This document shows positions 1,594 through 49,204 of a stretch of DNA of 50,803 nucleotides, one piece after another. This DNA comes from Blastocatellia bacterium (lineage in GTDB: Bacteria > Acidobacteriota > Blastocatellia > UBA7656), in the NCBI GenBank assembly GCA_022615215.1, contig JAKEHD010000252.1, forward strand, positions 1 to 50,803. Direction: 5' to 3'. The notes beneath the pieces are model-generated. The model saw only the letters and a program-made list of their open reading frames with translations, was not told the DNA's origin and made no database searches. Position 1 is the first letter of the stretch. The number at the start of each line of letters is the position of its first letter. The position numbers were made by a program, and so were the translations under genes.

Positions 1594-4500
1594 CGCGCAC
1601 CTCCGGCGACCTGACCTGAAGCGGAAGCTCGACCTGCGGATACAGCCTTCGAATTTTGAGCATGGCTTCGATCATCTTCGCCCTGTCGCCTACGGCAAGG
1701 GTCAGCGATTGGCGAGTCAGAATTTCTGCGGCGATGCGCGCCGCTTCTTCGCTCTTTTCAGCTTCCGAGATCAGAAAAGCCAGTACCCGGTCCTTCGCCA
1801 CGCGGCCCCGGTTTACGAGCGAAAGCACGCTTATGAAATAGGGCGCAAGCTCCCTGAGCCGCGCGGGGACGCCCGTCGCATATCGCTCAAGATAGTTTGT
1901 GACGAAGAGTTGCAAGTCGGCAGACGGGTGCTCGCTCAACTTGAGCATGTACTCCTGGCCCGCTTCTTCTTCGAAGTGCTCGGTTATGAGCGCGCGCCCG
2001 TAAGTGCGAACCTCTTCGATCACGCTGTCGCAGATGCTTATCAGAGCGGCGGGCGTGAAGTCTTCGGATTTGAACTTCTCTCTGAAGAAAGCGAAAAGGT
2101 GATTGCGCGAGTCTTCCCATTTCGAATCGAGCAAGCGCACAGCTTTCGCCATCTCTTCGCGGTAGCCTGCGGGGTTCGAAGCTCGACGGCAGCGATCATG
2201 AATGCGCTCGAATATAACCCACGCCGCCCTTCGCACGGATTTGATTTCATGGTTCGAGAGTTTGACAAGATCGTCTATTCGGAAGCTCTCGCTCCATTCT
2301 TCGCTTCTGGCTTCGAGCACCATGCCGCCGAGTTCTTTTGCGGCAGACGATTTTTCGCCTATAAGGTTCAGGACCGTCTGCTTTGAGACGCCTTCCATCC
2401 ACCCCTGCAAATCGTCCCTGAGCATTCCCACGAGATGATTCTGGATTTCATCGGAGACGCCGGGCGTAAGCAATGCATTTATGAACAAGACCGACAGGCG
2501 ATCTACGAAGTTGGGGTTTTTGCCGCTCGCCCCGATGCGCGATATGACGGGGCGTATGCGAAGGCGCACATCTTCGAGCGCGTGCATCGATAACGCCGCA
2601 AGCAGGCTCTCGCGTTCGAGCAGGTCGTCGTCCGAAAGCTGATCGAGCAATCTTATGCCTACGCCGCGAACCTGTTCGAAGGGCGAATCGAGAAGCGCGC
2701 GAATGATCTCTTCGGGCAGACTTCTTGTTTCGGTGTCGTGATTCAAAAGAATGTTGCCGCCAAGTTCCTGCGCCGCAAGCATCGGATGCGCGAGCAGGTC
2801 CGCGACCACTTCGAGACCGACGGAGCGCAACTGAGGGCCGAAGCACTTGAAGATGGTTTCAGACAGATCATTCGCTATGGCGATTTCGTTTTCCGTGAGC
2901 GTAAGCATCCGAGCGATCAATCGAGCGATCAGCGAACGTGCCGCTTCATCTGCGAACGCTGAAGAGCGCAGCAACTCCCTTGCGAATGCGCGCGTATCGG
3001 CGTGCGCGCTTGCCGCCAGTTCCGTTAAAAATCGGCTGTCTTGCAAAAAGACCTCACGCTTCTCTTCTATCCAGCGATGCGCCTGACGGCGTCCCTCTTC
3101 GAAGGCGCAACCGGCAAGCGCGAGCACGAGTTTGAGATCGGGATTGGCAGGCTGGTAACGGTCCTTTGCCATCTCAAAGCCGAATCTCGCAGTCACTTCA
3201 TAAGGCCGTTCGAGCAGCATGAGGAGAGCGTCGATGTCGAGCGCGGCGCAGAACTCCGCGCAGGCTCTGAGCGCCTTCACTGCGAAGTGATGGACGGGGC
3301 GGCATTCGCTCTCCGAAAGCAGGTGAAGCAGTCCTTCGGGCCTTGCTTCCCATAGTTTCGGAAACGCCTCTTCGCGCAGGGCGGGTTCGGGCGAGCCGGG
3401 CGTATAAGACAGGCGGCAGCGCCAGGTCATGGTGCCGTCTTTCAGAAAGTAGCGCGGGCTGTTCCCGTAGAGGATGTGATTGAACGCAAGGTAGTTTGCA
3501 TACTCATCCCAATCGACGTGACGGGTCTGGCGCGCCTGCCAGTCGTAATAGCTCGAATGTTTTACCGGCTGCGCGTCGACGTCAGAGAAGGGAAGCAGCA
3601 CGCCTACGGCCATCTTCACATAATCGGGGTCGTCGAGCGCGCCGAGTCGCTTGAGCGTCCGCCACACGCGGCGGCGCAGGTAAGCGCGCGTCTTGTCGCC
3701 ATAAGCGAACGGCGCATTGGAGCTCTTTATATGGGCTTTCGGGTGCCGTTCTATTGTGCCATCTGCGGCGCGGACGAAGACCTGATCTTTATCCCAGGCG
3801 TATTGCCCCTGAAAATACCCTCTCGTCTCCTTCTCGAAGCGATAAGCGAGTATGCCGAACACCTCCCCGTCGCGGCGATACTCTGCGGCCTTGAAGATGT
3901 GGCGCATGCGTTGGAAGTAATTCGGCGCGAGCGGCGCAGTGCGCAAAAGGTTCAAGAGCGCGGGCCGAACGTGTTCGTTGTCGATGAGGTAGAGCCTGTC
4001 GAGCACGGCGAAGTTGCGATGATCGCCTTCGTTCAGATAATCCGCGAGCGCGAGGGCGAAATCATCTGCCGGGCCTGAGCGCGCAAGCTCGCGCAAGGGG
4101 CGCGGCACCTGCTCGATCATATCCGAGCGGAACTCAGCGCACGTCTCTTCGTCAGAGAGCTTCAATAATGCCTCGCCCGCTATCCGGCGTACCATATCGG
4201 GCGTCGAAGGGTTTGCATAGAGACGACTGAGCGGTTCGATTGCGCTCCCGTCACCGCAGAGGCCGAGCGCCCATGCGATGGAGTAATCCCTCAGCGCGTC
4301 GTCCGTGCCCATGAGATTTATGAGCAGAGGGATGGCAGCGCGCAATCGAAGTTCGCCCGCGCGCCAGATAGCGCGATCAACGGGAGAGCGTTTATCGCCT
4401 TTGCGGCGGGCGCTTTCCTTATCGGCCAGACGGTCCAGGATCATCTGATTGCGGGCATTGCTGTCTGTGGGCGTTGCGGGCCGAGGCTTTGGCGGAGCAG

Positions 4501-4762
4501 ATGGCGCGAGCGTCGCCGAGCCTGTGGCGTCGCGATAGCCTTTCTTCGTTTTCGAATTGACGAGAGAATCGAATACTTTCTCAGCATCCTTGCGAGGCAA
4601 GGGCGTAGTGGTCTTCGTGCCTTCTTTGAGTTGAGTACCTCGGCGGCCGTAGCGGAAGTTGACCACGTAGCGGTCCTGGCCGACTTCGCACAGGTCTACT
4701 TCGTAGACCTTGTCGGAGCGCCCCTCTCTGTAAACCAGAACCGTCTGTTTGATCAGTTTCAT
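1583..4762 (-). CDS. WGR domain plus HEAT-repeat protein (MolR-like architecture), 1059 aa
   Basis: The N-terminus MKLIKQTVLVYREGRSDKVYEVDL...FRYGRRGTQLKEG...KGYRD is a WGR domain. It is followed by HEAT/PBS-lyase-like repeats (AIPLLINLMGTDDALRDYSIAWALGLCGDGSAIEPL) and a long helical repeat region. Confidence 0.85.
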   Translation of the reverse strand: MKLIKQTVLVYREGRSDKVYEVDLCEVGQDRYVVNFRYGRRGTQLKEGTKTTTPLPRKDAEKVFDSLVNSKTKKGYRDATGSATLAPSAPPKPRPATPTDSNARNQMILDRLADKESARRKGDKRSPVDRAIWRAGELRLRAAIPLLINLMGTDDALRDYSIAWALGLCGDGSAIEPLSRLYANPSTPDMVRRIAGEALLKLSDEETCAEFRSDMIEQVPRPLRELARSGPADDFALALADYLNEGDHRNFAVLDRLYLIDNEHVRPALLNLLRTAPLAPNYFQRMRHIFKAAEYRRDGEVFGILAYRFEKETRGYFQGQYAWDKDQVFVRAADGTIERHPKAHIKSSNAPFAYGDKTRAYLRRRVWRTLKRLGALDDPDYVKMAVGVLLPFSDVDAQPVKHSSYYDWQARQTRHVDWDEYANYLAFNHILYGNSPRYFLKDGTMTWRCRLSYTPGSPEPALREEAFPKLWEARPEGLLHLLSESECRPVHHFAVKALRACAEFCAALDIDALLMLLERPYEVTARFGFEMAKDRYQPANPDLKLVLALAGCAFEEGRRQAHRWIEEKREVFLQDSRFLTELAASAHADTRAFARELLRSSAFADEAARSLIARLIARMLTLTENEIAIANDLSETIFKCFGPQLRSVGLEVVADLLAHPMLAAQELGGNILLNHDTETRSLPEEIIRALLDSPFEQVRGVGIRLLDQLSDDDLLERESLLAALSMHALEDVRLRIRPVISRIGASGKNPNFVDRLSVLFINALLTPGVSDEIQNHLVGMLRDDLQGWMEGVSKQTVLNLIGEKSSAAKELGGMVLEARSEEWSESFRIDDLVKLSNHEIKSVRRAAWVIFERIHDRCRRASNPAGYREEMAKAVRLLDSKWEDSRNHLFAFFREKFKSEDFTPAALISICDSVIEEVRTYGRALITEHFEEEAGQEYMLKLSEHPSADLQLFVTNYLERYATGVPARLRELAPYFISVLSLVNRGRVAKDRVLAFLISEAEKSEEAARIAAEILTRQSLTLAVGDRAKMIEAMLKIRRLYPQVELPLQVRSPEVRDGV

Positions 4763-4849: not shown

Positions 4850-5452
4850 CTACAACTTTTTCCGTTTGTCAGCAATAAACCAACCGAACCTTCGCAAGAG
4901 TTGATCTGTCGAAATGACCGCAAACCCGCTTTCTTCGAGAGCCTCGACGAACCGGTCATGATCGAAGCGATCTTCTCGTGGGTGCTCAAGCAGACGCCGA
5001 ATGATTCGTTGATTTATGAACTTCTCAAAGACTTCTTCCGCATAAAAACGTCCCTTTGGCTTGAGGACGCGATGTATCTCCCTGAGAGCATCGCGCCAGT
5101 CAGGAACATGGTGGATGATGGCGAAGTCGAACACAGCGTCATAGCTGTTGTCCTCGGCCGGGATTTCAGTCACATCCCCCGTCCACAGCCGGACCTGCTC
5201 ACGACGAACCGCGAGTCTGCGACGAGCCATCTCCACCATCTTCGGGTCGAGATCGAAAGCGTCGACCTGTCGAGCGCCGAAAATATCCAAAATTATCTCT
5301 GTTCCGACGCCTCTTCCACATCCGACTTCCAGCACCGAGGCACCCGACACGCGGCCTCCCATAGCGAGCAACCGCCGCGCCTCGAATCGGCGTTGAAGAG
5401 TCGCCCGCGCCGGATTGTTCATCAGAGCTTTTTCGATACGATTCAAGAGCAA
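4850..5452 (-). CDS. class I SAM-dependent methyltransferase
   Basis: 200-aa ORF with SAM-binding motif I (VLEVGCGRGVGT) and the following acidic loop (VDAFDLD). Confidence 0.85.
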   Translation of the reverse strand: MLLNRIEKALMNNPARATLQRRFEARRLLAMGGRVSGASVLEVGCGRGVGTEIILDIFGARQVDAFDLDPKMVEMARRRLAVRREQVRLWTGDVTEIPAEDNSYDAVFDFAIIHHVPDWRDALREIHRVLKPKGRFYAEEVFEKFINQRIIRRLLEHPREDRFDHDRFVEALEESGFAVISTDQLLRRFGWFIADKRKKL

Positions 5453-13648: not shown

Positions 13649-15091
13649 TCAACTCACTAACTTTCTGATATTGCCATAAGCGCGATAGAAACCGCCACGC
13701 GCCTCGCGCACTTCGTCTACCACGTACCGCGCGCCCTCTTCGCGTATGCCTTTCGGAAATTGACACCGCCACCCTTTGTTGAACCCTTCGGAAATGACTC
13801 GCACGCGCAGCTTGCCGCCCTCCCTGTAGCATTCGACTTCTACGCCGCGTCCGACCGCTGCCGTTGTCTCGACCGCCGTTACGGATGACTCTTCGACCTG
13901 CGGAGCCTTGATCGAGACGGCTTCCGGAATAGAGCCTTCCTGCGCCGACTGTATGGCCGCTTCGCTTGCATCAATAGAAGCGAGCGAGCCGTCCGTTGTG
14001 ACTATGTAAAGCCGGTCGTTGAAGAACTGCATCGAATAGGCCGCGCCGCACCCCGTAGCGAGTTTCCATAATCGCTCTCCCGCTTCGTTGAAGCAATAGA
14101 CAGCCTCTCTGTTGTCCGCAGCAAAGACGTACTTGCCGTCTTCTGCGGCTGCGCAGGAAAAGATCGCCGCGTCGCACTGATACACGGTTCCGGGTTCGCC
14201 GCGCTTGCTGAAGCTGTGTACCTTGCCTTCATGGGTGCTGGCATAGACGGTCGCTTCTTCCTGCCAGCCGAACAACACCGATCCCCTGGTTGGGCGCTCC
14301 CATATCACGCGGCCGTCTTCCCAATCGTACATGGTCACACCCTCTGAATGGCCGTGATATACGCCTATCTCGTCCGCGCGAACCATCCATGCGTTCATGC
14401 CTCGGCTCTGGTGTGTCCACTGGGTTTCGTCTTCGTGATTGATTATGGTGACGCTGCCTTGCGCGTCCGAGACCGCAAGCACCCCGTCGCTTATGTCGAG
14501 CCAGTATATGTCGACATCTTCGGCGATCTCGTAGGCTATGCGCGGAGACTTGCTGCTCAGGTCATAGACCTTGCCGTCGTCGCATCCGGCGTAGAGCCAG
14601 TCGTCGTCTGCGACTATGCATTTCACGCCGTCGGGCAATTTGAATTTCGCTCGGACCTCGCCCGTGTGGTCGAGTGCGAAAATCTTTCCGGCTTCGTTCC
14701 CGACCCAGCAGAGCGATTCGTCTATGAATATGCCGAATGCGTTCGCGCCCGACTCGAATTTCCAGAGGACCGGGGCGGGTTTGTCTGCGGGCTGACGGCT
14801 TGCGGCGGTGCCGCGAGCGGGCCGCTCTACGGCTATGTGACGGCGAGTGACGGGCCGTTTCTTGCGCTCTCCCATGACCGCGTGTTCGTAGCCCTTCTTC
14901 ATCTTTTGATTGATCTTCTTTGCGGCTTCGGCCTTTGCCTTTTCGTGGCTCTCATAAGAAGCGGTGCTGGTCTGACCCGCGTCGCCTATGCGACCGAAGC
15001 GAATCGAGACCTCCGCGCCGTTGACCTTCACTTCATAGAATTTGTGGGAGCTGCCTTCTGATAGTTCGAGGTATGTTGTTTCTTCGGCCAT
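13649..15091 (-). CDS. WGR domain plus beta-propeller (PQQ/WD-like) protein
   Basis: The ATG at 15091 has a GGAGAC RBS, whereas the track start at 15109 is TTG. The WGR domain is TYLELSEGSSHKFYEVKVNGAEVSIRFGRIGDAGQ...KKGYEH. Repeated blade motifs follow (DDWLYAGCDDGKVYDL, VYASTHEGKVHSF, RLYIVTTDGSLASI), then a basic C-terminal segment of about 70 aa. Confidence 0.8.
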   Translation of the reverse strand: MAEETTYLELSEGSSHKFYEVKVNGAEVSIRFGRIGDAGQTSTASYESHEKAKAEAAKKINQKMKKGYEHAVMGERKKRPVTRRHIAVERPARGTAASRQPADKPAPVLWKFESGANAFGIFIDESLCWVGNEAGKIFALDHTGEVRAKFKLPDGVKCIVADDDWLYAGCDDGKVYDLSSKSPRIAYEIAEDVDIYWLDISDGVLAVSDAQGSVTIINHEDETQWTHQSRGMNAWMVRADEIGVYHGHSEGVTMYDWEDGRVIWERPTRGSVLFGWQEEATVYASTHEGKVHSFSKRGEPGTVYQCDAAIFSCAAAEDGKYVFAADNREAVYCFNEAGERLWKLATGCGAAYSMQFFNDRLYIVTTDGSLASIDASEAAIQSAQEGSIPEAVSIKAPQVEESSVTAVETTAAVGRGVEVECYREGGKLRVRVISEGFNKGWRCQFPKGIREEGARYVVDEVREARGGFYRAYGNIRKLVS

Positions 15092-15275
15092 AGTGTCTCC
15101 GTTATTCAAGATGTAATTTCAAGGTCAAAAATAATGCGCTATCAAACAGGTGTCCAGAGAAAATTATTCACCGGTTGGGAGCCGGCTGTCTCATTCGCGG
15201 ATGTCCGGGTTATTATATTTGGCCGGATAAAAAATTTCAGTAGCCTGAACGTAAGGGAGGGTTTCGGAGGTCGAA

Positions 15276-38412: not shown

Positions 38413-40506
38413 TCATTGAGGGATTACAAAGAACACATCCCAGGCCCAGCGTCCTGTGCCCGATTGTCGTAATCGCTTTACCTTCGCGCGGAATCGGAAC
38501 CAGTTACCGTACTGATCCAGTTTCTTGAACTCTTTATAACGGAGCTTTATCGCTCTAACACCCATAGAAGATAATGTGTGCAATTCACTTGCCTCCGAAA
38601 GGCCGTTGTGATTGCTATCCTGCCATAGGCGAAGCAAGCCATAAACACTGTCTCTATTGTCTATCTTGCCATCTCCGTTACCACCGTTTTCTTCTTTATC
38701 GAATTCAGCGAGGGCTAGGAAACCATTCGGCTCGAATGATGGTGGCTGCGCTGTGACATTGCCAAATAACTCTTTGCCATTGTCTATCAGACCATTGGAG
38801 TTTCGGTCGAGTACGAGGAATGCATCATCTGACCCTGCGGCGGTCCATCCAATGTGGTCGGGGATGCCATTGCTATTGAGGTCGAAGTCAATCCCTTCTT
38901 CCGCGCCTGTAAGCGCAAACCCGTTCCCGGACACATCTATCAATATTGGAGAGGGGTGTTCACATGTGCAGGTGGTAGGGTTGAAATATCCCCCGCTGTT
39001 TTCGCATACCGTTTGATCATCAGGGTTACAACATGGTTCAGATGGGATTGGGGTGCAAGAACCAGTAGACCCGGATGTGCCGGAGGATCCCGGAAGGCCA
39101 ACACTTCCTGGTGAACCATTGCCGCCGAAAATGCCATCTATGCCGCCATTTCCGGAAGGCGGGGAGGTACATTGTGTACCCGCTCCTGCGCTACCACCGT
39201 CGCCGCCGAAATTTGCGAACCCCGGATCACCACCTTGGCCTCCTTCGCCACCGGAACCGCCTGGCCCTTCAGTGAAAATACAATTTATAGATCCCATCCA
39301 ATCTGAGGGGTATGAGACAATTATAGTCCCGCCATTACCGCCATCACCGCCATCTCCACCCTTACCACCGTCGCCGCCATTGCCGGCCCGACCACCGTCG
39401 CCGCCATTTCCCCCGTTTCCATTTCCGCCTTGATTGCATGGGCAATCGGCTCCGTTACCGCCAGAACCGCCCACTCCCCCACTTCCTCCCAGTCCTCCGA
39501 CTCCGCCTGTGCCGCCGTTACCGCCAGCTCCCCCTTTGCTTTTTAAGGTTACGGTAGTTGTGGTTCCGCAAGGGATTGCAAAAAATATGCTGCCTCCATC
39601 ACCGCCATCCTCGCCATTCTCAGTTCCACCTGTTCCACCAGTCCCTCCGTTTGCGCCTTTCATACCAGAGGTTCCATTCTGGTTGCCCCCACATATGCCA
39701 TCTACACCACCATTACCTGGATTCCCGGTTGACCCGACAGTGCCTGAAGAGCCAGTTCCTCCATCAGCGCCTTGCGATCCGTTCTCATTAATATTGAGAG
39801 TCGGAGAAGATGCCGCTTCCTTGCGAGACTTGTTTTTTTGTTTCAACCATTGTTTTCTACCATATCCACTGGTGTTTATCGTTATATGCCCCCCTGCTTT
39901 GATAACCGGGGTCGAAGGAAATACCCTCGCTTTTTCATTTGCATGTAGAGCAACTAACTGCTCGCTATCCCTTAAATCCCGGAGAGTCGTGCCCATTACA
40001 CCCATTCGCTGTATTGCAAACAGGTAAACATCATGATTGCCTCGTATTACAGCTTTATTGCCTTCAAAGATCAAGTTCTCTGCCAGAATCACTGTGTCCT
40101 CAGCAATCTCGATACTTTCGGGCAAGTAAAAAGTACCAGCGATATATGCGCCAGTTAGCGGTGAATCCTCATATTTTACGGTTTGCATCTCTGGCATGCT
40201 GGCAAGAAACGGCCTCAATTTTTTTCTCCAGTTCGAATCAAGCAGGATATCTGGATCGAAATCCACCCCTTTCGTTAGCAATAGTTCGCGCGCCGGTTTG
40301 AAGCTCTCACGCGTTCTTAATGCCTGCAACTCACGCTGCTCGTCACTGTCATTAGGTGAAGTCGCATTGGAACTCAATTGATAGTTGTTTACGCCTTGCC
40401 GCATGATCTTGGAGCGTGTTAGAGCAGTCAAATTAGAGCCTGTTAACAGACACACTGCCATTACAAAGGCCAGGACTTTGAAGCTATGTATTCTTTTAAG
40501 CATCAT
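38413..40506 (-). CDS. secreted glycine-rich repeat protein with C-terminal Ca-binding-like (DxNxNG) repeats
   Basis: The ATG at 40506 has an AAGGAG RBS, whereas the track start at 40686 was rejected. The signal peptide is [28 protein letters not shown]. The central 250 aa or so is GGxGGxG-type repeats ([28 protein letters not shown]...[17 protein letters not shown]) with spaced Cys residues. The C-terminus is [11 protein letters not shown]...[17 protein letters not shown]...[11 protein letters not shown] is lower than in the neighbouring genes. Confidence 0.75.
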
Positions 40507-40530
40507 TTTTCTCCTTCGCTTGTGGTTGGA

Positions 40531-40565
40531 AAATACAAGCATCCTTATTAAGGATGCTTGTATTT
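40531..40565. promoter_or_regulatory. 16-bp perfect inverted repeat with 3-nt loop, 24 nt upstream of the glycine-rich protein start
   Basis: AAATACAAGCATCCTT-att-AAGGATGCTTGTATTT. Confidence 0.85.
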
Positions 40566-40993
40566 GATTATGAACCAAACTATTATGCGCCAATTTCAAG
40601 TTACTGCCGGTGAGGAGGCCAGCGAACTTCTTGGAGCCGCAATTGAATAAAACGAGACTCCACGCAGCTTGCTGTACAATGTGCATGGAAGGTGTTCAAT
40701 TCACTTTAGTAGCAGGCTACGAAGAATTCTTTATCCCACAGAACTTAAGGGCGATCCAAACTGCGCGGGGTAAATGAAACTTTGAGAGAGAAGTTCAGAG
40801 TACGCGCCTCAACGTGCAACAACCCGAAGGCTTGACCCTGTGCTTTATACAAAAGCCCATTTGATGCCGCGCCAAACATACACTTGATTATGGTTTTATC
40901 TCTGCAATTGCGAAGTATAACACAATGTAGTTTAAAAATAAACGGAACAATTCATACATAAAGAAAAAACTGTTCCAGGTCGTCGTTGAAAGG

Positions 40994-41953
40994 CTATTTC
41001 GCGTGGAAGAGAAGGATAGCCTCTATCATCTCGATGGATTCGAGAGAGAGCATATTGTCGATCTTCAGTTCTTCGACATGGCCGGGAAGGGCTTCGCGGA
41101 CGCGCGAGTGGGATATGGGCGATACGTAAACGGCGCGGGCCGTCCGGACGGCTTTGCGAATGCTGGAGAGATTGGTGTCGTCGAGCGCCTTTATGTTATC
41201 TATGACGGCGGGCGGAGTCCCAACCATGGTCAGGCGCTTGCGGAAAGCGGGAAAAAAACTCGCGTCCGATACGATCATCAAGACCTCGCCGCGATGGGCC
41301 GCCCCTGTGAGCATGGATATGTAAGCGGGGTCGAGCCTTACCTGTAGAGTTTTTTTGTCGTACCGGGTCGCAAGCTCCGCGACCTGTTTGTAGTGATAAT
41401 CGGTCGTGATGAAATAGTCCATCTGCGCGAGCAGATGTGCGAGTTGTTCGGTTGGCCGCTCCACACGGTCGAGCAAGACCGGAAAGACGCGCATGTTGAG
41501 CGTGGCGATAAGCTCGCTCGCGCAAAGCCTTATCTGCTCTTCGTTGCATTCGATCATGGCGGCCTGAACAGATTTGAAGCGCGATTTTTCGACGAAGTTT
41601 TGCATCAGAGCGACATAGTGTTGGGGAGGCAGTTTCAACTGGCCCGCCTGCGATAGATTCGATTTTATGAGCCTCAGTATTGAGAGGTGGTATGCCTGGT
41701 CGAGGTCGGCTTTTTCCGGGTCCGATACGAATGCTCCTGCCCCTGCGCGAAGCTCGACGTAGCCCTCCTGTTTGAGGTGCTGATAGATTGTGAAGGCCGT
41801 TTTGATGTTTATGTTATTGCGCGAGGCCACCTGTCTCACGCTCGGAAGCCGGTCTCCTGAGCGGAGCTTTCCCATATATAACGCGGTGAGCAATTGCTCG
41901 CGCGCCTGCTCGACCAGAGATTCCTTGCGGTTTTTGTCGAGGATGAATTGCAT
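40994..41953 (-). CDS. GntR-family transcriptional regulator with large C-terminal ligand-binding-like domain
   Basis: The N-terminal wHTH is LPSVRQVASRNNINIKTAFTIYQHLKQEGYVELRAGAGAFV. 319 aa. Confidence 0.85.
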   Translation of the reverse strand: MQFILDKNRKESLVEQAREQLLTALYMGKLRSGDRLPSVRQVASRNNINIKTAFTIYQHLKQEGYVELRAGAGAFVSDPEKADLDQAYHLSILRLIKSNLSQAGQLKLPPQHYVALMQNFVEKSRFKSVQAAMIECNEEQIRLCASELIATLNMRVFPVLLDRVERPTEQLAHLLAQMDYFITTDYHYKQVAELATRYDKKTLQVRLDPAYISMLTGAAHRGEVLMIVSDASFFPAFRKRLTMVGTPPAVIDNIKALDDTNLSSIRKAVRTARAVYVSPISHSRVREALPGHVEELKIDNMLSLESIEMIEAILLFHAK

Positions 41954-42068: not shown

Positions 42069-43016
42069 TCAACCTGAAAGAATCGCAGCGGCCAGCAAAG
42101 GGACCATGAATTCGTGATGCCCGGTAAAGGAAAAGCCTCGCCCGCTGCCCGCGACGGGGCGGCGCACGACGTTCGTCATCGGGCGATAGTGCTGAATGAA
42201 GTCGAAGTTGGCCGTAGTGAAATCTTCAAGCCTGTATCCGAGGTTGCGAACCACGGTGACGGTCTTGAGAAAGACTTCCGGCAGCACGACCGCAGAACCG
42301 AGATTCAGATAGACCCCGCCGCCGTCGAGCGTGCGCACTATCGAGCAGAGCAAGCGGAAGTCATCGTAAGTGGTCTGGCCCGTCGAAGCGCCGTCGGCGC
42401 TCGGATGTATGTGAACGATGTCGGTCCCTACAGCCACATGCACGGTCACGGGAACGCTCGCTTCGTAGGCGGCGTGAAGCAGAGACTCTCCGGCGTGCGC
42501 GGGTTGCATGAGATGAAGCTCGCGGCCGAGGCTTTCGCCCATGCCCAGATGATCGCGCGCGCCCGCTTTGATGGCTTCGTTTATGATGCGCCCGGTCTCT
42601 TCGGCCATGCCGAAGCTGCCCGACCCCAAAGTCGCATCCACATCTTCGGAGGTCGCTCCGGCGAGGGCTATCTCGAAGTCGTGTATCATCGCCGAGCCGT
42701 TCATGACGAAAGCGGTCGCGTACCCGCGTTTCATCAGATCGATCAGCAACGGACCCACGCCCGTCTTGATTACGTGACCGCCCATGCCGACTATGATGGC
42801 GCGGCCTTTCTGTTTCGCCTCACGAATGAGAGCGGCAAGCGCGCGGAGTTCGCGTGCGGCCAGAATGTTCGGGAGGCTGTCGAGAAACTCTTTCAGTGTG
42901 GAGTCGGGCGCGAGAGGGCGCGCGAAATCTTCGGTAGTCACCTTGCTCGGGCGCGAAGCGAGCGGATAGGTGGCTATAGCGGAAAAGTCCAGCGGCTCGA
43001 TTTTGTAGCGCGACAT
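42069..43016 (-). CDS. deoxyhypusine-synthase-like (DHS-fold) protein, tentative
   Basis: 315-aa ORF. Segments AIIVGMGGHVIKTGVGPLLIDLMKRGYATAFVMNGSAMIHDFEIAL and VPVTVHVAVGTDIVHIHP align by eye with the DHS blocks IFLGYTSNLISSG...VLVTTAGGVEEDL and IPVFSPALTDGSLGDM. The family assignment needs an HMM check. Confidence 0.5.
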   Translation of the reverse strand: MSRYKIEPLDFSAIATYPLASRPSKVTTEDFARPLAPDSTLKEFLDSLPNILAARELRALAALIREAKQKGRAIIVGMGGHVIKTGVGPLLIDLMKRGYATAFVMNGSAMIHDFEIALAGATSEDVDATLGSGSFGMAEETGRIINEAIKAGARDHLGMGESLGRELHLMQPAHAGESLLHAAYEASVPVTVHVAVGTDIVHIHPSADGASTGQTTYDDFRLLCSIVRTLDGGGVYLNLGSAVVLPEVFLKTVTVVRNLGYRLEDFTTANFDFIQHYRPMTNVVRRPVAGSGRGFSFTGHHEFMVPLLAAAILSG

Positions 43017-43019
43017 CGT

Positions 43020-43604
43020 TCAGTCCTGTTTTCCGGCCGGATAGATCGCCTCTTCGACCATCTCGCAAAGGATGTGGGCTATGGTTATGTGCGTCTCCTG
43101 AATGCGTTGAGTCGAGTCGGCTTCGACGACGAGCGCGAGGTCTACGAGCGCGGCAAGCTCTCCCCCTTTGCGTCCCGCGAGTCCTATGGTTTTTATATCC
43201 ATTTCGCGCGCCGCCCTGACCGCTCGCAGAACGTTAGGCGAGTTGCCGCTGGTCGAGATGGCAAGGGCCACATCGCCCGCTCGTCCGAGGGCGCGCAACT
43301 GGCGCTCGAACAACTCGTCGAACGAGGAGTCGTTCCCGACCGAGGTGAGAATCGAAGTGTCCGTAGTGAGCGCGATGGCAGCTATCGGAGGACGGTCGTA
43401 ATTGAGACGATTGACGAGTTCTGCGGCTATATGCTGTGCATCGGCGGCCGAACCCCCGTTGCCGAACGCCATAACCTTGCCGCCCGCAGCGATTGCATCG
43501 ATGATGATTTCCACAGCGCGCGCGACCTCGCCCGAATGCGAGTCGAAGAAGGCCCGCTTGGTCGCAATGCTCTGGCGCGCTATGTCTCGTATGCGTTCTA
43601 TCAT
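43020..43604 (-). CDS. SIS-domain protein, GmhA (sedoheptulose-7-phosphate isomerase)-like
   Basis: GGKVMAFGNGGSAADAQHIAAEL, LTSVGNDSSFDELF, ISTSGNSPNVLRAVRAARE and RIQETHITIAHILCEMVE closely parallel GmhA/DiaA. The start was chosen at the ATG at 43604; the track ORF extends to 43727. Confidence 0.8.
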   Translation of the reverse strand: MIERIRDIARQSIATKRAFFDSHSGEVARAVEIIIDAIAAGGKVMAFGNGGSAADAQHIAAELVNRLNYDRPPIAAIALTTDTSILTSVGNDSSFDELFERQLRALGRAGDVALAISTSGNSPNVLRAVRAAREMDIKTIGLAGRKGGELAALVDLALVVEADSTQRIQETHITIAHILCEMVEEAIYPAGKQD

Positions 43605-43772
43605 CGCAAGGGAGTAGTGTATTTTCTCGAAGTGCAAAAGACAAGTTGCATGAAGAGCCATCGCGCGATCACGAATAAATTTCGACCTGACATGATCGAA
43701 CGGACAGTTAGAAAGCGTCGCGCGCAAAGTGCCCGGCCCTTTCGCTAACCGGTCTTTTTGTGCGCCGACGGT

Positions 43773-44630
43773 TCACTGTTCGATCTTCTCGCGCCACCAG
43801 GTCGGCAGCGCGAAAGCGGCAGTGTGGACCGCGCTGTTGTAGTAGCGGCCGGTGAATTCGATTGCGGGATTATCGTAGGAGTGATAGCCCTCGGTGGCGA
43901 GCGCAAAGGCCATATCGCCGCCGATATAGGTCGGGATCGATGCTCTGTAAACCTGGACGTTGCCGAAAACTTCCCGCATTCGGCGCGCGCCTCGCTCAAG
44001 AACATCGTCCTGATAGGCAGGCACGCCCAGATGCTGGCAGACCACGCCGTTTGGCGCGAGGCACGACTTGATATCTCCGTAGAAATCCCGCCTGTAGAGC
44101 GACCGTCCGGGACCGATTGGATCCGTCGAGTCGATTATGACGGCGTCGAATCTCTCTCCGCCCCTTGCAGCCGAACGCATGTAAGCAGCCCCGTCGCCTA
44201 TCACCAGTTCGAGGCGCGGGTCGTCGTAGTCGCCATGTATACCGAGATATTCGACTGAGCGACGGACTACTATTTCATCAAGCTCCACCATCACTACACG
44301 CTTCACCCACGAATGGCGAAGCGCTTCCCGCAGGCAGCCGCCATCGCCGCCCCCGATGATGATTATGGCAGCAGAACCGCCCGGCCCTCGGCGTCCGAGC
44401 AGCGGAACCTGCACGAGCATCTCGTGATATACGAACTCATCGGCCAGCGTCGTTTGAATGAGGCCATCCAGTACGAGCACGCGGCCCAGGTGGTCGTGCT
44501 CCAGTATCTCCAACCTCTGATATGGAGTCGTCTCGGCGTAGAGCAATCGCCCTCTGAGGCCCTGGATTATGGTTTCCGGAATCCCTTTCTCGTACCACCA
44601 CCTGACTGCCGGGACCGCTTTTTCAAGCAT
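43773..44630 (-). CDS. speE: polyamine aminopropyltransferase (spermidine synthase)
   Basis: SPYQRLEILE-type N-terminus (TPYQRLEILEHDHLGRVLVLDG), YHEMLV, IIIGGGDGGCLRE, MVELDEIVV and IIDSTDPIGP. Confidence 0.9.
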   Translation of the reverse strand: MLEKAVPAVRWWYEKGIPETIIQGLRGRLLYAETTPYQRLEILEHDHLGRVLVLDGLIQTTLADEFVYHEMLVQVPLLGRRGPGGSAAIIIIGGGDGGCLREALRHSWVKRVVMVELDEIVVRRSVEYLGIHGDYDDPRLELVIGDGAAYMRSAARGGERFDAVIIDSTDPIGPGRSLYRRDFYGDIKSCLAPNGVVCQHLGVPAYQDDVLERGARRMREVFGNVQVYRASIPTYIGGDMAFALATEGYHSYDNPAIEFTGRYYNSAVHTAAFALPTWWREKIEQ

Positions 44631-45012
44631 TGCCGGTCTCCTTATAGCCCTTCATTACTTCGACATCCATATCGAAACCGCGCTTGAGTTGTCGCACCAT
44701 TATCTCTTTTGCCTGTAGGGCGTTCTTGAGTGTCTCCAATGCGCGCTCGGGGTCGCCGCTGCCGCAGAAGAAAAGGTCCGCCGCGAAGTAGTTGAATTCG
44801 GGCCAGGTGTGGATTGTGATGTGCGACTCGGCGAGCAGGGCCGTAGCCGTTACGCCGCGAGGCCTGAATTGATGAATAGATAATTCGATTAGCGTCACCC
44901 CTCCTGCCGCTATCGCCTCTTCAAGCGCCTGCCGAATCCGGTCTGCATCGTTGAGCAGATCGTACGGCGATGACCAGGCATCTATGATCAAATGTGTGCC
45001 AACGTTCTTCAT
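44623..45012 (-). CDS. speH: S-adenosylmethionine decarboxylase proenzyme (pyruvoyl, small bacterial/archaeal type)
   Basis: GTHLIIDAW, the self-processing site LLAESHITIHTWPE and AADLFFCG. The ATG is at 45012 and the stop overlaps the speE start by 8 nt (ATGCTTGA). Confidence 0.85.
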   Translation of the reverse strand: MKNVGTHLIIDAWSSPYDLLNDADRIRQALEEAIAAGGVTLIELSIHQFRPRGVTATALLAESHITIHTWPEFNYFAADLFFCGSGDPERALETLKNALQAKEIMVRQLKRGFDMDVEVMKGYKETGNA

Positions 45013-45120
45013 AGCGGTTGCCCTTCCGTTCTTTGGAAACTCAGGGACCGGCAACTCCCGATCATGCTCGACGGATGTTTTGTGCCGGCCTGTCGATCAA
45101 TCTCAGTCTTCTGTGCCTTC

Positions 45121-46779
45121 TCAGTACGTCCGGGCATCTCCCCTCCATACCGCTTTCGCTTCGGGGGCGGCGCTTGCTTCATGAAAAACAGAGAACAACC
45201 TCTCTTCATAATCGCCTTCGCCGGGCGTCCCGTCGTTGAATCCCTGCACGAGTATTTCAGTAGCTATGAGCGAGAATCTCTCGATCTGCTCGACCGGGAA
45301 CCCCTTTCCCGTCAGATAGGGCAAGGCCCAGAAATCGAATGTGTAAACCGGCAGAATCGCAGAACCCTTCACGTTTCGATAAACCTCTTCGACCATTTCA
45401 ACGCCTTCTCGCCAGTCCATGGTGTTGTGCGTCCAACTGAGGTCCTCGCCGCGAATTCCGTATTTGTCGGCCTCCTTGTGTATCGGAAGAGACCTCCTGT
45501 GATAGTACATCTCCACGCGATAGAACATCGGCGAAGTCTCGTTGAGAAAGTCTATAGTATTATGGACCGTCTGTCTCGTTTCGCCCGGAAACCCGATTAT
45601 CATCGATACGAAGGTGGGAATGCCGCGCTCCTTCAGATTGCGAATGCCGTACTTGTATCTCTCGACTGTGGCGAACTTCTTCATGTTGGTCAGTATGTTC
45701 TGGTCGCCGGACTCTATGCCGAGGAAGACGCCCGCGCAGTTGCTCTCCGCCATCAGGTCGAAGGTCTCATCGTCGGAGTTCGAGCATCGGAAATATGAAT
45801 ACCATTTGAAGTCGAATTTGTTGCGGATCATCATTCGGAGAAGCTCTTTGAAGCGGGGCAGCGGGACGTTGAACGTGTCATCGATGAACATGAGATTCTT
45901 CGCCCCCGCGTCTTGCAAGGCGCTCAGTTCCCTCTCGACCACAGGCAGGCTTGTGAGGTTGAGCGGGCCTGCGAAGTACGGATAGCTGCAAAAGGCGCAC
46001 GAATAGGCGCAGCTTCGCGCCGTTCGCATAGGCACGGTAGGTGTGTAATAATCCCTGTCGAAATGCTGCCAGTCCACGCTGTTTTCATCCATGTCGTTGC
46101 TTTCGACGACTCTCTCAGTCCTGTGAAACTCTTCGTTGTCGAGGGTGTATATGAGATTTGGGATGCGACTGAGATCCTGGCCTCGCTCCTTGCGCAACTC
46201 TTCGAGCGTCATCGATAGCGTCAACTCTCCCTGAGAATCGTGAATGTATATGTCTGCGCCCATCTCTCTGAATAGTTCGTCCTGAGCCTCAGTGTCGTTG
46301 AGGAAACAAACGTCGAAGATATACGGCCCGCCGACTGCGATTTTAGTGCCTGAGCTATGCTGTCTGATGAACTTGACCAGAGCGCAAACGGGGTCCGTCT
46401 CCTCGTAATAGGTCGTGGTGATAGCGACCACGCTCGGCGACTGCGCGAGCAGGTCTATCAATCTCTGCTTTTCCCTGTTGAAGAAGTTGACTATTTCGAC
46501 TCTGAGATTCCGCCGACAGAGAAAGCTCTTCAAGGTGATAGCGCCGAGGTTGGGCATCTCCGCCATATTCAAGCGATGATCGCGGCCCGTTGCCTCTTTC
46601 AGCGTATGGTTCAGCAAATCCATTATAGGTATTCTGGCTCCGCGAAATTCAGGGAACTGCCATTGGAGATACCTGTAAAAGCCTGAGCTTTCTTTTGCCT
46701 CTCTTGCCAGGGCGATCTCTTCGTCGTAATCGCGTTCATAGAATCCTATGATGATGCAATCGAGTCGGTCTTTCTTCAT
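45121..46779 (-). CDS. B12-binding-domain radical SAM protein (class B rSAM), paralogue 1
   Basis: The ATG at 46779 has a GAGGAG RBS. The N-terminal Rossmann-like region is LDCIIIGFYE...VVAITTTYYE...KIAVGGPYI. The CX3CX2C cluster motif is RSCAYSCAFCSYPYF, and GVFLGIESGD follows. 552 aa. Confidence 0.85.
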   Translation of the reverse strand: MKKDRLDCIIIGFYERDYDEEIALAREAKESSGFYRYLQWQFPEFRGARIPIMDLLNHTLKEATGRDHRLNMAEMPNLGAITLKSFLCRRNLRVEIVNFFNREKQRLIDLLAQSPSVVAITTTYYEETDPVCALVKFIRQHSSGTKIAVGGPYIFDVCFLNDTEAQDELFREMGADIYIHDSQGELTLSMTLEELRKERGQDLSRIPNLIYTLDNEEFHRTERVVESNDMDENSVDWQHFDRDYYTPTVPMRTARSCAYSCAFCSYPYFAGPLNLTSLPVVERELSALQDAGAKNLMFIDDTFNVPLPRFKELLRMMIRNKFDFKWYSYFRCSNSDDETFDLMAESNCAGVFLGIESGDQNILTNMKKFATVERYKYGIRNLKERGIPTFVSMIIGFPGETRQTVHNTIDFLNETSPMFYRVEMYYHRRSLPIHKEADKYGIRGEDLSWTHNTMDWREGVEMVEEVYRNVKGSAILPVYTFDFWALPYLTGKGFPVEQIERFSLIATEILVQGFNDGTPGEGDYEERLFSVFHEASAAPEAKAVWRGDARTY

Positions 46780-46804
46780 GGTTTGTCTCCTCGCCGCAGG
46801 GGTA

Positions 46805-48406
46805 TCACATGAATATTTCCCGCAATCTTCTCTCTTCATCGCCGGTATCGGGGGTATCGGAATCGAATCCCTTAACGAGCATATCGGTCGCAACGCCTGC
46901 GAACCGGACGATCTTCTCTATCGAGAATCCCTTCGACATAAGATAGGGCGCAGCGTCTATCGAGAACGTATAGGTCGGCATTATGACAGGCCCTTTGACC
47001 GACCTGTAGACCTCCAGGGTCAGCTCGGCCGCCTCTTGCCAGTCCATAGTGTTATGCTTCCAACTGTAGCCTTCGCCTTCGATGCCGTACTTGTCGGCCT
47101 CTCTGTGTATCGGGACCGATTTGCTGTGCCAGTAGAGTTCGGCGGCATAAAAGGTCGGGTCGGTTTCATTGAGAAAGTCGATGGTGTTCTGAACGGTCTC
47201 CCTCGTTTCGCCGGGGAATCCGACTATCATCGATACGAAGGCGGGAATGCCGCGCTCCTTGAGCTTGCGAATGCTGTCCTTGTATTTTGCGACCGTAGCG
47301 CGCTTGTTCATATTGACCAATATGTTCTGGTCGCCGGACTCTATGCCGAGGAAGACGCCTATGCATCCACTGTCGCGCATCAGGTCGAAGGTCTCGTCGT
47401 CGGCGTTCGAGCATCGGAAATACGAATACCATTTGAAATCATACTTGTTGGCGATCATCGACTTGAGAAGGTTTTTGAATCGCGGCAGCGGCACGTTGAA
47501 GGTGTCATCGATGAAGCTGATGTACTTCACTCCTGAGTCTTTCAAGACTGCGAGTTCGTTTTCGACCACGGGCAGGCTTGTGAGGTTGAGCGGACCTGCG
47601 AAGTACGGATAGCTGCAAAAGGCGCACGAATAGGCGCAGCTTCGCGCCGTTCGCATAGAGGCGAAGGGAGTGTAAAACTCCTTATCGAAGAACCGCCAGT
47701 CCACGCTGTTTTCATCCATCTCATTGTTTTCGATGACCCTTTCATTTCTGTGGAACTCTTTGTTGTCGAGGGTGTATATGAGATTCGGGATGCGGCTGAG
47801 ATCCTGGCCTCGCTCCTTGCACAGTTCTGCGAGCGCCATCGAGAGCGTCAACTCTCCCTGAGAATCGTGAATGTAGATGTCTGCGCCAATCTCTCTGAAT
47901 ATCTCGTTTTGAGTTTCCGCATCATTGTTGTGGCATAAGTTGAATACATAAGGGCCGCCGACGATTATTTTGGTATCGGTGTTGTACTGCTTGACGAAAT
48001 CGATGATATTGCGGATGGGGCCGGAGTCTTCATAATAGGTGGTGGTGATAGCGACCGCTTTTGGCGATTGCGCCAGCATATCTATCAATCTCTGCTTTTC
48101 CCTGTTGAAGAAATTGATCATCCCGACGTTGAAATTGCGATTGCAGAGAAAGCTGGCCAGGACGACGACGCCCAGGTTCGGAGTTTCCGCCAGATTGAGT
48201 TGATGGTCCCGACCTGTCGTCTCGGTCAAGACGGTATTGAGCAATTCCATGTATGGAATTCTTCGTCCGCGAAAAGGAACTAGTTGACCGAGCACATAAT
48301 AATAAAACCCGGAATCTCCCTGTGCCTCTTTTTTCTTTTGGAATTCCTCTTCGTAATGATGCTCGTAGAAGCCTATAACGATGCAGTCGAGTTTGTCGCC
48401 CATCAT
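46805..48406 (-). CDS. B12-binding-domain radical SAM protein (class B rSAM), paralogue 2
   Basis: The ATG at 48406 has GAGGGG upstream; the track start is 48418. The architecture matches paralogue 1, including the identical RTARSCAYSCAFCSYPYFAGPLNLTSLPVVE segment. 533 aa. Confidence 0.85.
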   Translation of the reverse strand: MMGDKLDCIVIGFYEHHYEEEFQKKKEAQGDSGFYYYVLGQLVPFRGRRIPYMELLNTVLTETTGRDHQLNLAETPNLGVVVLASFLCNRNFNVGMINFFNREKQRLIDMLAQSPKAVAITTTYYEDSGPIRNIIDFVKQYNTDTKIIVGGPYVFNLCHNNDAETQNEIFREIGADIYIHDSQGELTLSMALAELCKERGQDLSRIPNLIYTLDNKEFHRNERVIENNEMDENSVDWRFFDKEFYTPFASMRTARSCAYSCAFCSYPYFAGPLNLTSLPVVENELAVLKDSGVKYISFIDDTFNVPLPRFKNLLKSMIANKYDFKWYSYFRCSNADDETFDLMRDSGCIGVFLGIESGDQNILVNMNKRATVAKYKDSIRKLKERGIPAFVSMIVGFPGETRETVQNTIDFLNETDPTFYAAELYWHSKSVPIHREADKYGIEGEGYSWKHNTMDWQEAAELTLEVYRSVKGPVIMPTYTFSIDAAPYLMSKGFSIEKIVRFAGVATDMLVKGFDSDTPDTGDEERRLREIFM

Positions 48407-48721
48407 CGCACCCCTCATTCAGAGCTAAAGGCAACGGTCGCAAACGGGTCGACCTTATGCCTGACGAACCGCCTGAGAAGGCGGTCCCGTTTGAAGGCTG
48501 TCGGCAGCCTCCTCGGCCCACATTTATGGATAGGCGAAAGCTGGCGGAGTTTGGAAATCGATTCGCACGACGGGGATAATGGTGACTTTTCGAAAGCCCG
48601 GCGATCAGGAAAAACTGATGGACCTGCCAGGGAATCGCCCCCAGGATCGGACGTGCCGCCGGCTACAGAGCCATCCGCTGTGGCAATGCTATCAAATTGT
48701 TACAAAATCCGAAGCGGCCAG

Positions 48722-48750
48722 AGTGTATCTAATCAAACCGGGATCGTCAA
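48722..48750 (-). promoter_or_regulatory. sigma70-like promoter candidate for the rSAM-polyamine cluster
   Basis: The minus strand reads TTGACG (48750-48745), a 17-nt spacer, then TACACT (48727-48722). This would give a leader of about 310 nt before the ATG at 48406. Confidence 0.35.
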
Positions 48751-48803
48751 GCGAATTTTAGAACGGGTCGTAAATCGCCGCTCCTGGGAGGTAAGTGTAA
48801 GGG

Positions 48804-48833
48804 GATCAACCGATTCGCTGCAAGCGGTTGATC
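48804..48833. promoter_or_regulatory. 9-bp perfect inverted repeat in the divergent intergenic region
   Basis: GATCAACCG-(12 nt)-CGGTTGATC. Confidence 0.8.
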
Positions 48834-48940
48834 GCGGCGTCAGGCAATTGAGCGAACCGAGGGATTGAGTTGAAACCCTTTCCTTGCCATTTCCTGACCC
48901 CACTGCGATAATCCGAGCGAGGGAATAATGAGGAATAATT

Positions 48941-49204
48941 ATGATCACGATGCCCAAAGAACTTCGACAAGCTGTTCGCGCATCCGAAGGTCGACCCGTG
49001 CGTGTCTCTGACCCGGAAACCAGCGAGGAATACGTCCTTTTGCCGGCGAAAGTCTACGACCAGGTGTCGGGATTGTTCTATGACGACGATCCCCTGACAA
49101 GCGATGAGAGGCGAAACTTGTTGATTCAGGCGGGCCTGCGCGCCGGGTGGGACGATCCGGAGATGAACGTTTACGACGAGTTCGATCCCCGGAGTTTAGT
49201 CTAG
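48941..49204 (+). CDS. hypothetical small protein (87 aa)
   Basis: An AGGAA RBS lies 5 nt upstream. The product is MITMPKELRQAVRASEGRPVRVSDPETSEEYVLLPAKVYDQV.... I did not recognise the family; it could be antitoxin-like, based only on its position next to the TA nest. Confidence 0.5.
   Translation: MITMPKELRQAVRASEGRPVRVSDPETSEEYVLLPAKVYDQVSGLFYDDDPLTSDERRNLLIQAGLRAGWDDPEMNVYDEFDPRSLV

Follow-up and report, generated by a model that had tools for sequence, protein, structure and literature searches.

The stretch of DNA analysed here, referred to as the window (50,803 nucleotides; positions 1 to 50,803 of the forward strand of contig JAKEHD010000252.1, assembly GCA_022615215.1, from a Blastocatellia bacterium of the phylum Acidobacteriota), carries on its minus strand a cassette of four genes that spans 4.6 kb (43773-48418). 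Read from its upstream end, the cassette consists of rSAM-2 (46805-48418) and rSAM-1 (45121-46779), which encode paralogous, predicted B12-binding radical S-adenosylmethionine (SAM) enzymes, followed by speH (44623-45012), for a predicted pyruvoyl-dependent S-adenosylmethionine (AdoMet) decarboxylase (AdoMetDC) of class 1b, and speE (43773-44630), for a polyamine aminopropyltransferase of a subclade that is seen beside the rSAM pair. Three starts are possible for rSAM-2 (48418, 48406 and 48403), of which 48406, preceded by a GAGGGG motif, or 48403 is the likely one; the NCBI call gives a protein of 532 aa. The 25-nt gap between rSAM-2 and rSAM-1 holds a GAGGAG ribosome-binding site, the gap between rSAM-1 and speH measures 108 nt, and the 3′ end of speH overlaps the start of speE by 8 nt (ATGCTTGA, read directly from the sequence). 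An initial annotation, drawn from the sequence alone, had joined these genes and two further ones downstream into one operon-like cluster of six. Its six minus-strand open reading frames (ORFs), with their gaps and overlaps, were confirmed from the ORF list and the sequence, and profile searches upheld five of its six family assignments; the sixth, a protein "like" deoxyhypusine synthase (DHS), gave only a marginal match and belongs to the GSU2086 family, as described further below.

SpeH scores well above the cutoff of TIGR03330 (127.6 bits versus 75.65), and its alignment to the T. maritima AdoMetDC (1tlu) shows that the ESH pyruvoyl cleavage site and the catalytic Cys are conserved (AESHITIHTWPE, FFCG). 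We regard it as a predicted class 1b pyruvoyl AdoMet decarboxylase, with SAM as its presumed substrate as opposed to the arginine or ornithine of neofunctionalised homologues. SpeE likewise passes the cutoff of PRK00811 (273.8 bits versus 260), and its motifs IIGGGDGG and DSTDPIGPG align to those of E. coli SpeE (3o4f), its nearest solved structure. In passing the NCBIfam equivalog cutoffs, in keeping the catalytic motifs and in being translationally coupled, the two genes resemble canonical speH(speD)-speE pairs; they differ from them in that, here and in five other contigs, two rSAM genes precede, and in that SpeE falls into a subclade of its own with Gln instead of Arg at residue 199. The best database relative of the window's SpeE is 62% identical, and its closest standalone relatives (60-62% identity) come either from ordinary speH-speE pairs or from solitary speE genes, with no rSAM neighbours. 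In a neighbour-joining (NJ) tree without bootstrap, it clusters instead with the SpeE domains of the fusion proteins found in the contigs L003, L084, L085 and L099. Residue 199 is Gln in all six members of this rSAM-linked clade and Arg in all 56 other close SpeEs. Three more substitutions, H74Q, Y135F and Y263H, come close to being clade-specific; together with Q199, they may mark an altered substrate specificity.

Both rSAM proteins contain a radical SAM core with a CxxxCxxC motif, as class B enzymes do. In the Pfam profile search, the pair scores 83-86 bits against Radical_SAM (PF04055), with 86 for rSAM-2, and the three cysteines of the motif (C257, C261 and C264 in rSAM-1) are invariant across 16 homologues. 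For the B12-binding domain (PF02310), the gathering score is 32.1, and rSAM-2 reaches 31.9 bits and rSAM-1 19.5; full-length matches to NCBIfam families of B12-binding radical SAM enzymes lend support to the domain in both. The best family for both proteins is TIGR04479 (PhpK), with 584.8 bits for rSAM-2 and 598.5 bits for rSAM-1, so that neither reaches the cutoff of 600, although the match spans profile positions 2-501 of 504 and exceeds the next families, which score about 100 bits or less, by about 480 bits. The six cassette-clade proteins tested score 581-598 bits (581-595 for the orthologues in L003 and L085), all of them below 600. Orthologues are labelled "PhpK family P-methyltransferase" by JGI.

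The closest relatives of rSAM-1, at about 68-71% identity, are a few singleton metagenomic proteins. Its orthologues, 64-71% identical, occur in L003, L084, L085 and L101, and L099 has a fragment of one; rSAM-2 orthologues lie upstream of rSAM-1 in L003 and L085, and fragments of rSAM-2 in L084 and L101. JGI metagenome contigs were scanned twice for further instances, and nothing above 52% identity was found. Within the window, the two paralogues (45121-48406, minus strand) are 73.5% identical in DNA, with 78-91% over a central stretch of about 630 nt and a perfect match of 64 nt over the region coding for CxxxCxxC. Their proteins are 68% identical, as compared with 55-61% for cross-genome rSAM-1/rSAM-2 pairs. 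The window's paralogues are thus more alike than any cross-genome pair, which suggests that the tandem copies have undergone partial gene conversion.

The arrangement recurs in all five other contigs. In L003, a waaF gene is followed by the rSAM-2 orthologue, the rSAM-1 orthologue, a fusion of a class I methyltransferase (MT) with SpeE, and an unrelated, convergent rSAM gene. L084 has a fragment of rSAM-2, rSAM-1, an MT-SpeE fusion and a convergent mutS. In L085, rSAM-2 and rSAM-1 precede an MT-AdoMetDC-SpeE fusion, a saccharopine-dehydrogenase-like gene and a Rieske fragment, and in L099 a fragment of rSAM-1 precedes an AdoMetDC-SpeE fusion and again the saccharopine-dehydrogenase-like gene. 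Lastly, L101 shows a fragment of rSAM-2, rSAM-1 and an MT-AdoMetDC fusion whose SpeE part is cut by the contig end. Hence, counting the window, there are six instances in which AdoMetDC and/or SpeE domains immediately follow an rSAM-1 orthologue, and rSAM-2 is present in each of the five with upstream sequence. The GC content of the five other cassette contigs is 64-68%, as against 54% in the window's contig, and the outer neighbours of the cassettes vary (waaF, mutS, Sacchrp_dh, SIS); therefore, an inherited chromosomal backbone does not by itself account for the shared arrangement. A seventh instance is possible in sample SRR5262249, which has both an rSAM-1-like protein and a SpeE of the cassette clade. 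The coupling of a class B rSAM pair to speH and speE, which the initial annotation had put forward from a single locus, is thus borne out by five contigs with different neighbours, by the fusions and by the SpeE subclade.

From these comparisons, the core that is kept throughout would be rSAM-2, rSAM-1 and SpeE, with AdoMetDC, the class I MT domain and the saccharopine-dehydrogenase-like gene as variable accessories. An MT partner was looked for in the window, where there is only a generic methyltransferase at 5039-5344, 33% identical, 40 kb away and unlinked. The saccharopine-dehydrogenase/carboxynorspermidine-synthase-like gene (L085, 6951-8643; L099, 2284-2820) scores 123 bits against a cutoff of 800 and overlaps the end of the SpeE fusion in both contigs, and the Rieske oxygenase fragment that follows it in L085 resembles the glycine-betaine monooxygenase GbcA. 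These genes could supply extra polyamine-tailoring steps.

In phylogenetic terms, the cassette rSAMs form one clade within the PhpK-like family in 100% of 200 NJ bootstraps, and this clade splits into rSAM-1 and rSAM-2 subclades of orthologues with 98% bootstrap each. The tree points to an old duplication, with both copies retained in a fixed order. The linkage is specific to this clade: among 80 other family members from GTDB representative genomes, at 58% identity or less, no speH, speE, SIS or GSU2086 gene was found within 10 kb (6/6 versus 0/80; Fisher p of about 2e-9, calculated by hand with loci treated as independent). What stands downstream of the wider family instead (n=75) is PP-binding in 22 cases, AMP-binding in 18 and Condensation in 15, i.e. 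the context of nonribosomal peptide synthetases (NRPS), and the nearest outgroup, L005, lies among NRPS, aminotransferase and TauD genes. It should also be noted that a class I/II aminotransferase-like gene is found upstream of PhpK-like rSAM genes in NRPS clusters of Blastocatellaceae, Pyrinomonadaceae, Plantactinospora and Kitasatospora (L005, 2264-3427; L006, 2232-3347; L031, 8864-9949; L033, 8729-9829), directly so in L031 and L033, with 54-75% identity to that of L005. This order recalls swb6/swb7, which encode an ACC-synthase-like enzyme dependent on pyridoxal phosphate (PLP) and a SAM C-methylase (PMC7277169); the pairing may hint at the type of substrate used by the wider family.

A candidate sigma-70-like promoter, TTGACG-17-TACACT, lies about 300 nt upstream of rSAM-2 (48722-48750, minus strand); it matches the consensus at 9 of 12 positions, but the region is not enriched for such elements over shuffled sequences, and it is therefore weak evidence. 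The initial annotation had named termination in the 108-nt gap as a finding that would speak against its cluster; terminator prediction gives no terminator-like site there or in the 25-nt gap. The only hairpin is a weak one after speE (43700-43681), and the region scanned has fewer terminator-like sites than its shuffles. We infer that the cassette genes are co-transcribed. A riboswitch, whether in the 520-nt leader ahead of rSAM-2 or at another site, was also considered and is rejected: the window has no Rfam match that reaches the gathering score, 48300-49000 has no match even with E relaxed up to 1, and five related loci have no match either.

Taken together, the conserved order, the fusions and the clade-specific linkage make it very probable that rSAM-2, rSAM-1, speH and speE act as one functional unit, in a cassette that appears to be rare, accessory and self-contained. 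As to its product, we put the probability of a C-methylated aminopropyl polyamine at about 0.5. The fuller proposal is advanced more tentatively and at somewhat less than even odds: that some bacteria make C-methylated polyamines by means of two cobalamin-dependent rSAM methylases, which act on the aminopropyl unit, and a dedicated pair of AdoMetDC and aminopropyltransferase. In such a pathway, SpeH would decarboxylate SAM, the dedicated SpeE would move the aminopropyl group to an amine acceptor, and rSAM-1 and rSAM-2 would each place a methyl group on an unactivated carbon of the same molecule. The methyl groups could be added before transfer, to the aminopropyl chain of SAM or decarboxylated SAM as the donor, or afterwards, to the finished polyamine. 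In the related cassettes, the class I MT fused to SpeE would probably add N-methylation, and some would employ the saccharopine-dehydrogenase-like enzyme in addition. We infer that the chemistry is methylation and that it takes place on a polyamine or its donor.

Three known systems help to place this proposal. PhpK/BcpD (TIGR04479) shares full-length homology with the cassette rSAMs, as well as a putative N-terminal B12-binding domain, the CxxxCxxC core and, for actinomycete members, about 50% identity; however, the cassette clade is separate and remains below 600 bits, and its partners are AdoMetDC and SpeE, not phosphinothricin or NRPS genes. PhpK itself acts on a 2-amino-4-X-butanoate, a type of structure to which the methionine moiety of SAM also belongs. 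A precedent for acting on that moiety is Orf29/Swb7 (PMC7277169), a class B rSAM enzyme that C-methylates it ahead of cyclopropanation. This is a B12-type rSAM enzyme that takes SAM as its substrate and hands the product to a SAM-consuming partner encoded next door, which is the logic of methylating the donor first; its partner, however, is encoded in an NRPS cluster and is a PLP-dependent ACC synthase instead of AdoMetDC or SpeE. Orf29 moreover has 640 aa, and in its authors' comparison it falls into a clade apart from the remaining class B methyltransferases (PMC7277169). Orf29/Swb7 is accordingly rejected as a homologue closer than the superfamily, given that both length and clade differ, and it serves, compared by description, as a mechanistic precedent only.

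The third system concerns the fusions. Michael (2011; FEBS Lett 585:2627) is said to have proposed that methyltransferase/AdoMetDC/aminopropyltransferase fusions make N-methylated long-chain polyamines. A passage of PMC6302742 cites Michael 2011 on these fusions. In their domain logic, such proteins would correspond to the MT-AdoMetDC-SpeE fusions of L085 and L101 (with the SpeE part cut by the contig end in the latter) and to the MT-SpeE fusions of L003 and L084; the window's genes differ in being unfused and lacking an MT domain. To our knowledge, the rSAM pair does not appear in the published description of these fusions. We also know of no radical C-methylation among the established reactions of polyamines, which comprise aminopropylation, carboxyaminopropylation, N-methylation, hydroxylation and branching, and we know C-methylated spermidine analogues only as synthetic, metabolically stable probes. 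The initial annotation knew of no characterised pathway that couples class B rSAM enzymes with speH/speE; in agreement with this, full-text literature searches found no published coupling of a cobalamin-dependent or PhpK-type rSAM enzyme to an aminopropyltransferase, to spermidine or to polyamines. All parts of the cassette thus belong to known families, and it is the combination, along with its probable polyamine chemistry, that would be new.

Several observations weigh against a C-methylated polyamine as the product. The instances number six or seven, all of them metagenomic and several on short contigs, and the grouping of the SpeE domains comes from an NJ tree without bootstrap. SpeE keeps all the canonical motifs of spermidine synthases and bears no mark of an unusual donor. 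The AdoMetDC domain is absent from the cassettes of L003 and L084; a dedicated decarboxylase is thus probably not strictly needed, which weighs slightly against the variant in which the donor is methylated first. Furthermore, the only named activity of the PhpK-like family is P-methylation, and the usual substrates of the wider family are probably amino-acid-like rather than polyamines, because most relatives reside in NRPS clusters.

The last of these points is also what lends some weight to a different acceptor, in which the SpeE-like enzyme would aminopropylate a non-polyamine amine that the rSAM pair tailors into a specialised metabolite. The NRPS neighbourhood of the wider family, the aminotransferase and TauD genes of L005, the rare and accessory character of the cassette, and the clade-specific R199Q at an otherwise conserved position of SpeE would all be in keeping with it. 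Nevertheless, there is no NRPS, polyketide synthase or other scaffold gene beside any of the six cassettes, their accessory genes are of the polyamine type (AdoMetDC and the carboxynorspermidine-synthase-like Sacchrp_dh), and the SpeE is nearest to genuine spermidine synthases, so that we consider this acceptor unlikely, at perhaps one chance in five. If the substrate is a polyamine or a precursor thereof, the rSAM pair might still carry out non-methylating radical chemistry such as rearrangement, cyclisation or dehydration, since class B-like enzymes that do not methylate (BchE, HpnJ, AprD4 and OxsB) are among the weaker family and structure matches; the large, full-length lead of the PhpK methyltransferase family over all of these renders this improbable. 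Conversely, the proximity of the two scores (585 and 598 bits) to the cutoff of 600, and the JGI label on the orthologues, could be taken to mean that the rSAMs are true P-methyltransferases of the PhpK type, making a phosphinate natural product with speH and speE merely adjacent. This is the most doubtful explanation of all: the motif EDK-x5-NS of phosphoenolpyruvate mutase is found in none of the 99 loci L001-L099, a set that takes in the cassettes of L003, L084, L085 and L099, no phosphonate gene is present among the annotated large ORFs of the window or upstream on the source contig, all six tested clade members fall short of the TIGR04479 cutoff, and the adjacency to SpeE is conserved, with SpeE partly fused to other partners.

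It remains to weigh the six-gene cluster of the initial annotation, a single pathway in which a GmhA-like isomerase and a DHS-like enzyme would yield a sugar-phosphate-linked or aminobutyl-transferred polyamine. The genes in question follow speE on the same strand after 168 nt: SIS (43020-43604), a GmhA-like (sedoheptulose-7-phosphate isomerase-like) gene, and, 3 nt later, the gene of the GSU2086-family protein (42069-43016). A GntR-family regulator (40994-41953; Pfam GntR, 34.1 bits) comes after the pair, across a spacer of 115 nt that had been called repeat-filled and turns out to contain just two 10-nt two-copy repeats, not beyond chance. The SIS protein lies under both equivalog cutoffs (PRK13936, 224.5 bits versus 276; TIGR00441, 190 versus 209.45), close enough to them for the name GmhA-like to be fair on profile scores. 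More than 100 database proteins are 78-91% identical to the GSU2086-like protein, and its homologues place the window in Blastocatellia. SIS homologues that are 78-80% identical are paired with a GSU2086-family gene in L001 and L002. In these long Blastocatellia contigs, at about 80% identity, the pair is intact and no rSAM, speH or speE gene is located within 10 kb; the 3-nt gap is conserved as well (window, 42069-43644, minus strand; L001, 9412-10954; L002, 9349-10951). L001 also has a GntR gene, 55% identical, directly after the pair; therefore, GntR goes with the pair and not with the cassette. About 55 nt directly before the SIS start align among the window, L001 and L002 and include a promoter-like element, TTGTCT-17-TACACT (43644-43616), which stops 11 nt short of the SIS start codon (ATG, 43604). 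This conservation settles where SIS starts and is a sign that the pair has retained a promoter of its own. No Shine-Dalgarno sequence is present between this element and the ATG, and the mRNA looks leaderless.

The second gene of the pair does not bring in a DHS, either. Its product matches the GSU2086 family NF052581 with 421.9 bits (cutoff 250), residues 8-311 covering profile positions 1-301 of 301, whereas it reaches 25.1 bits against PF01916 (DS; threshold 27), over residues 53-122 only, and 18.8 bits against TIGR00321 (cutoff 304). The segment opposite ISWNK of the structure 8put is NVVRRP, without lysine, in a low-confidence stretch of the alignment, and the last 45 residues of the protein contain no lysine at all. 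A phmmer search connects the protein to 8put with E = 3.8e-4. Its AlphaFold model has a pLDDT of 64 and a pTM of 0.69, and Foldseek matches it about equally to 3c2q (LOR/SDH), AgrE/ArgZ and DHS, with a TM-score of 0.36-0.55 and 10-18% identity among the matches listed. What the protein has in common with deoxyhypusine and homospermidine synthases is hence the fold superfamily; it is equally near to LOR/SDH and the ArgZ C-terminal domain, belongs to the GSU2086 family and is paired with gmhA. With sub-threshold scores and no catalytic lysine, it is rejected as a deoxyhypusine or homospermidine synthase.

The GSU2086 gene of Geobacter sulfurreducens is flanked by hldE (GSU2085) and gmhA (GSU2087), whose phenotype in transposon sequencing it shares (PMC5585712). 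Based on this and on the gene order in L001 and L002, SIS and GSU2086, possibly along with GntR, are interpreted as a core Blastocatellia module associated with the heptose pathway, and the GSU2086-family protein may be an enzyme of heptose biosynthesis. The single six-gene pathway can still draw on adjacency on one strand, on the lack of a strong terminator after speE and on the lipopolysaccharide (LPS) heptosyltransferase gene directly upstream of the rSAM pair in L003. Against these stand the relatives at 80% identity that possess SIS/GSU2086 without rSAM or speHE, four of the five other cassettes, which show no SIS/GSU2086 in the available sequence, the conserved promoter-like element before SIS, the failure of the GSU2086-family protein at every DHS threshold as well as its missing lysine, and the Geobacter gene order (PMC5585712). 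This pathway appears largely refuted by the comparative context, and we rate it as very improbable. Evidently, then, the proposed operon-like cluster consists of two units; the linkage across all six genes is not conserved and the DHS match fails, and what survives of it is the rSAM-speH-speE core. The LPS heptosyltransferase II gene of L003 (2-1030, plus strand; TIGR02195, 291 bits) and the window's gmhA-like neighbour place the cassette twice beside heptose-pathway genes, which may be coincidental or may reflect a genuine connection to the cell envelope.

If the cassette does make C-methylated polyamines, it would represent a previously unseen branch of polyamine metabolism and widen the range of cobalamin-dependent rSAM enzymes by a new class of substrates, and the large, mostly uncharacterised PhpK-like family would gain a second functional anchor. 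It would also supply enzymes for making stable polyamine analogues, and the small size of the cassette makes a direct test by heterologous expression feasible. Independently of this, the analysis corrects an attractive six-gene reading and flags the GmhA/GSU2086 pair as an as yet unassigned step linked to heptose synthesis.

The remaining genes of the window are those of an ordinary chromosome, including CoaBC, guanylate kinase, YicC, CdaA-YbbR-GlmM, a sulfatase with a formylglycine-generating enzyme, transporters and others. Composition gives no signal of recent horizontal transfer, with GC at third codon positions being uniform (0.65-0.73) over all seven genes, from rSAM-2 to the GntR gene. 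Downstream of the latter, an ORF of 757 aa (38413-40686, minus strand), without Pfam match, has a long glycine-rich middle part with collagen-like or GGxGG repeats, and the proline-rich ORFs on the opposite strand at 39053-40027 are its mirror-image artefacts. Finally, two proteins with an N-terminal WGR domain are encoded less than 12 kb apart on the minus strand, which is an unusual pair: one of 1059 aa with HEAT repeats (1583-4762), and one of 486 aa with a PQQ/beta-propeller domain (13649-15109).

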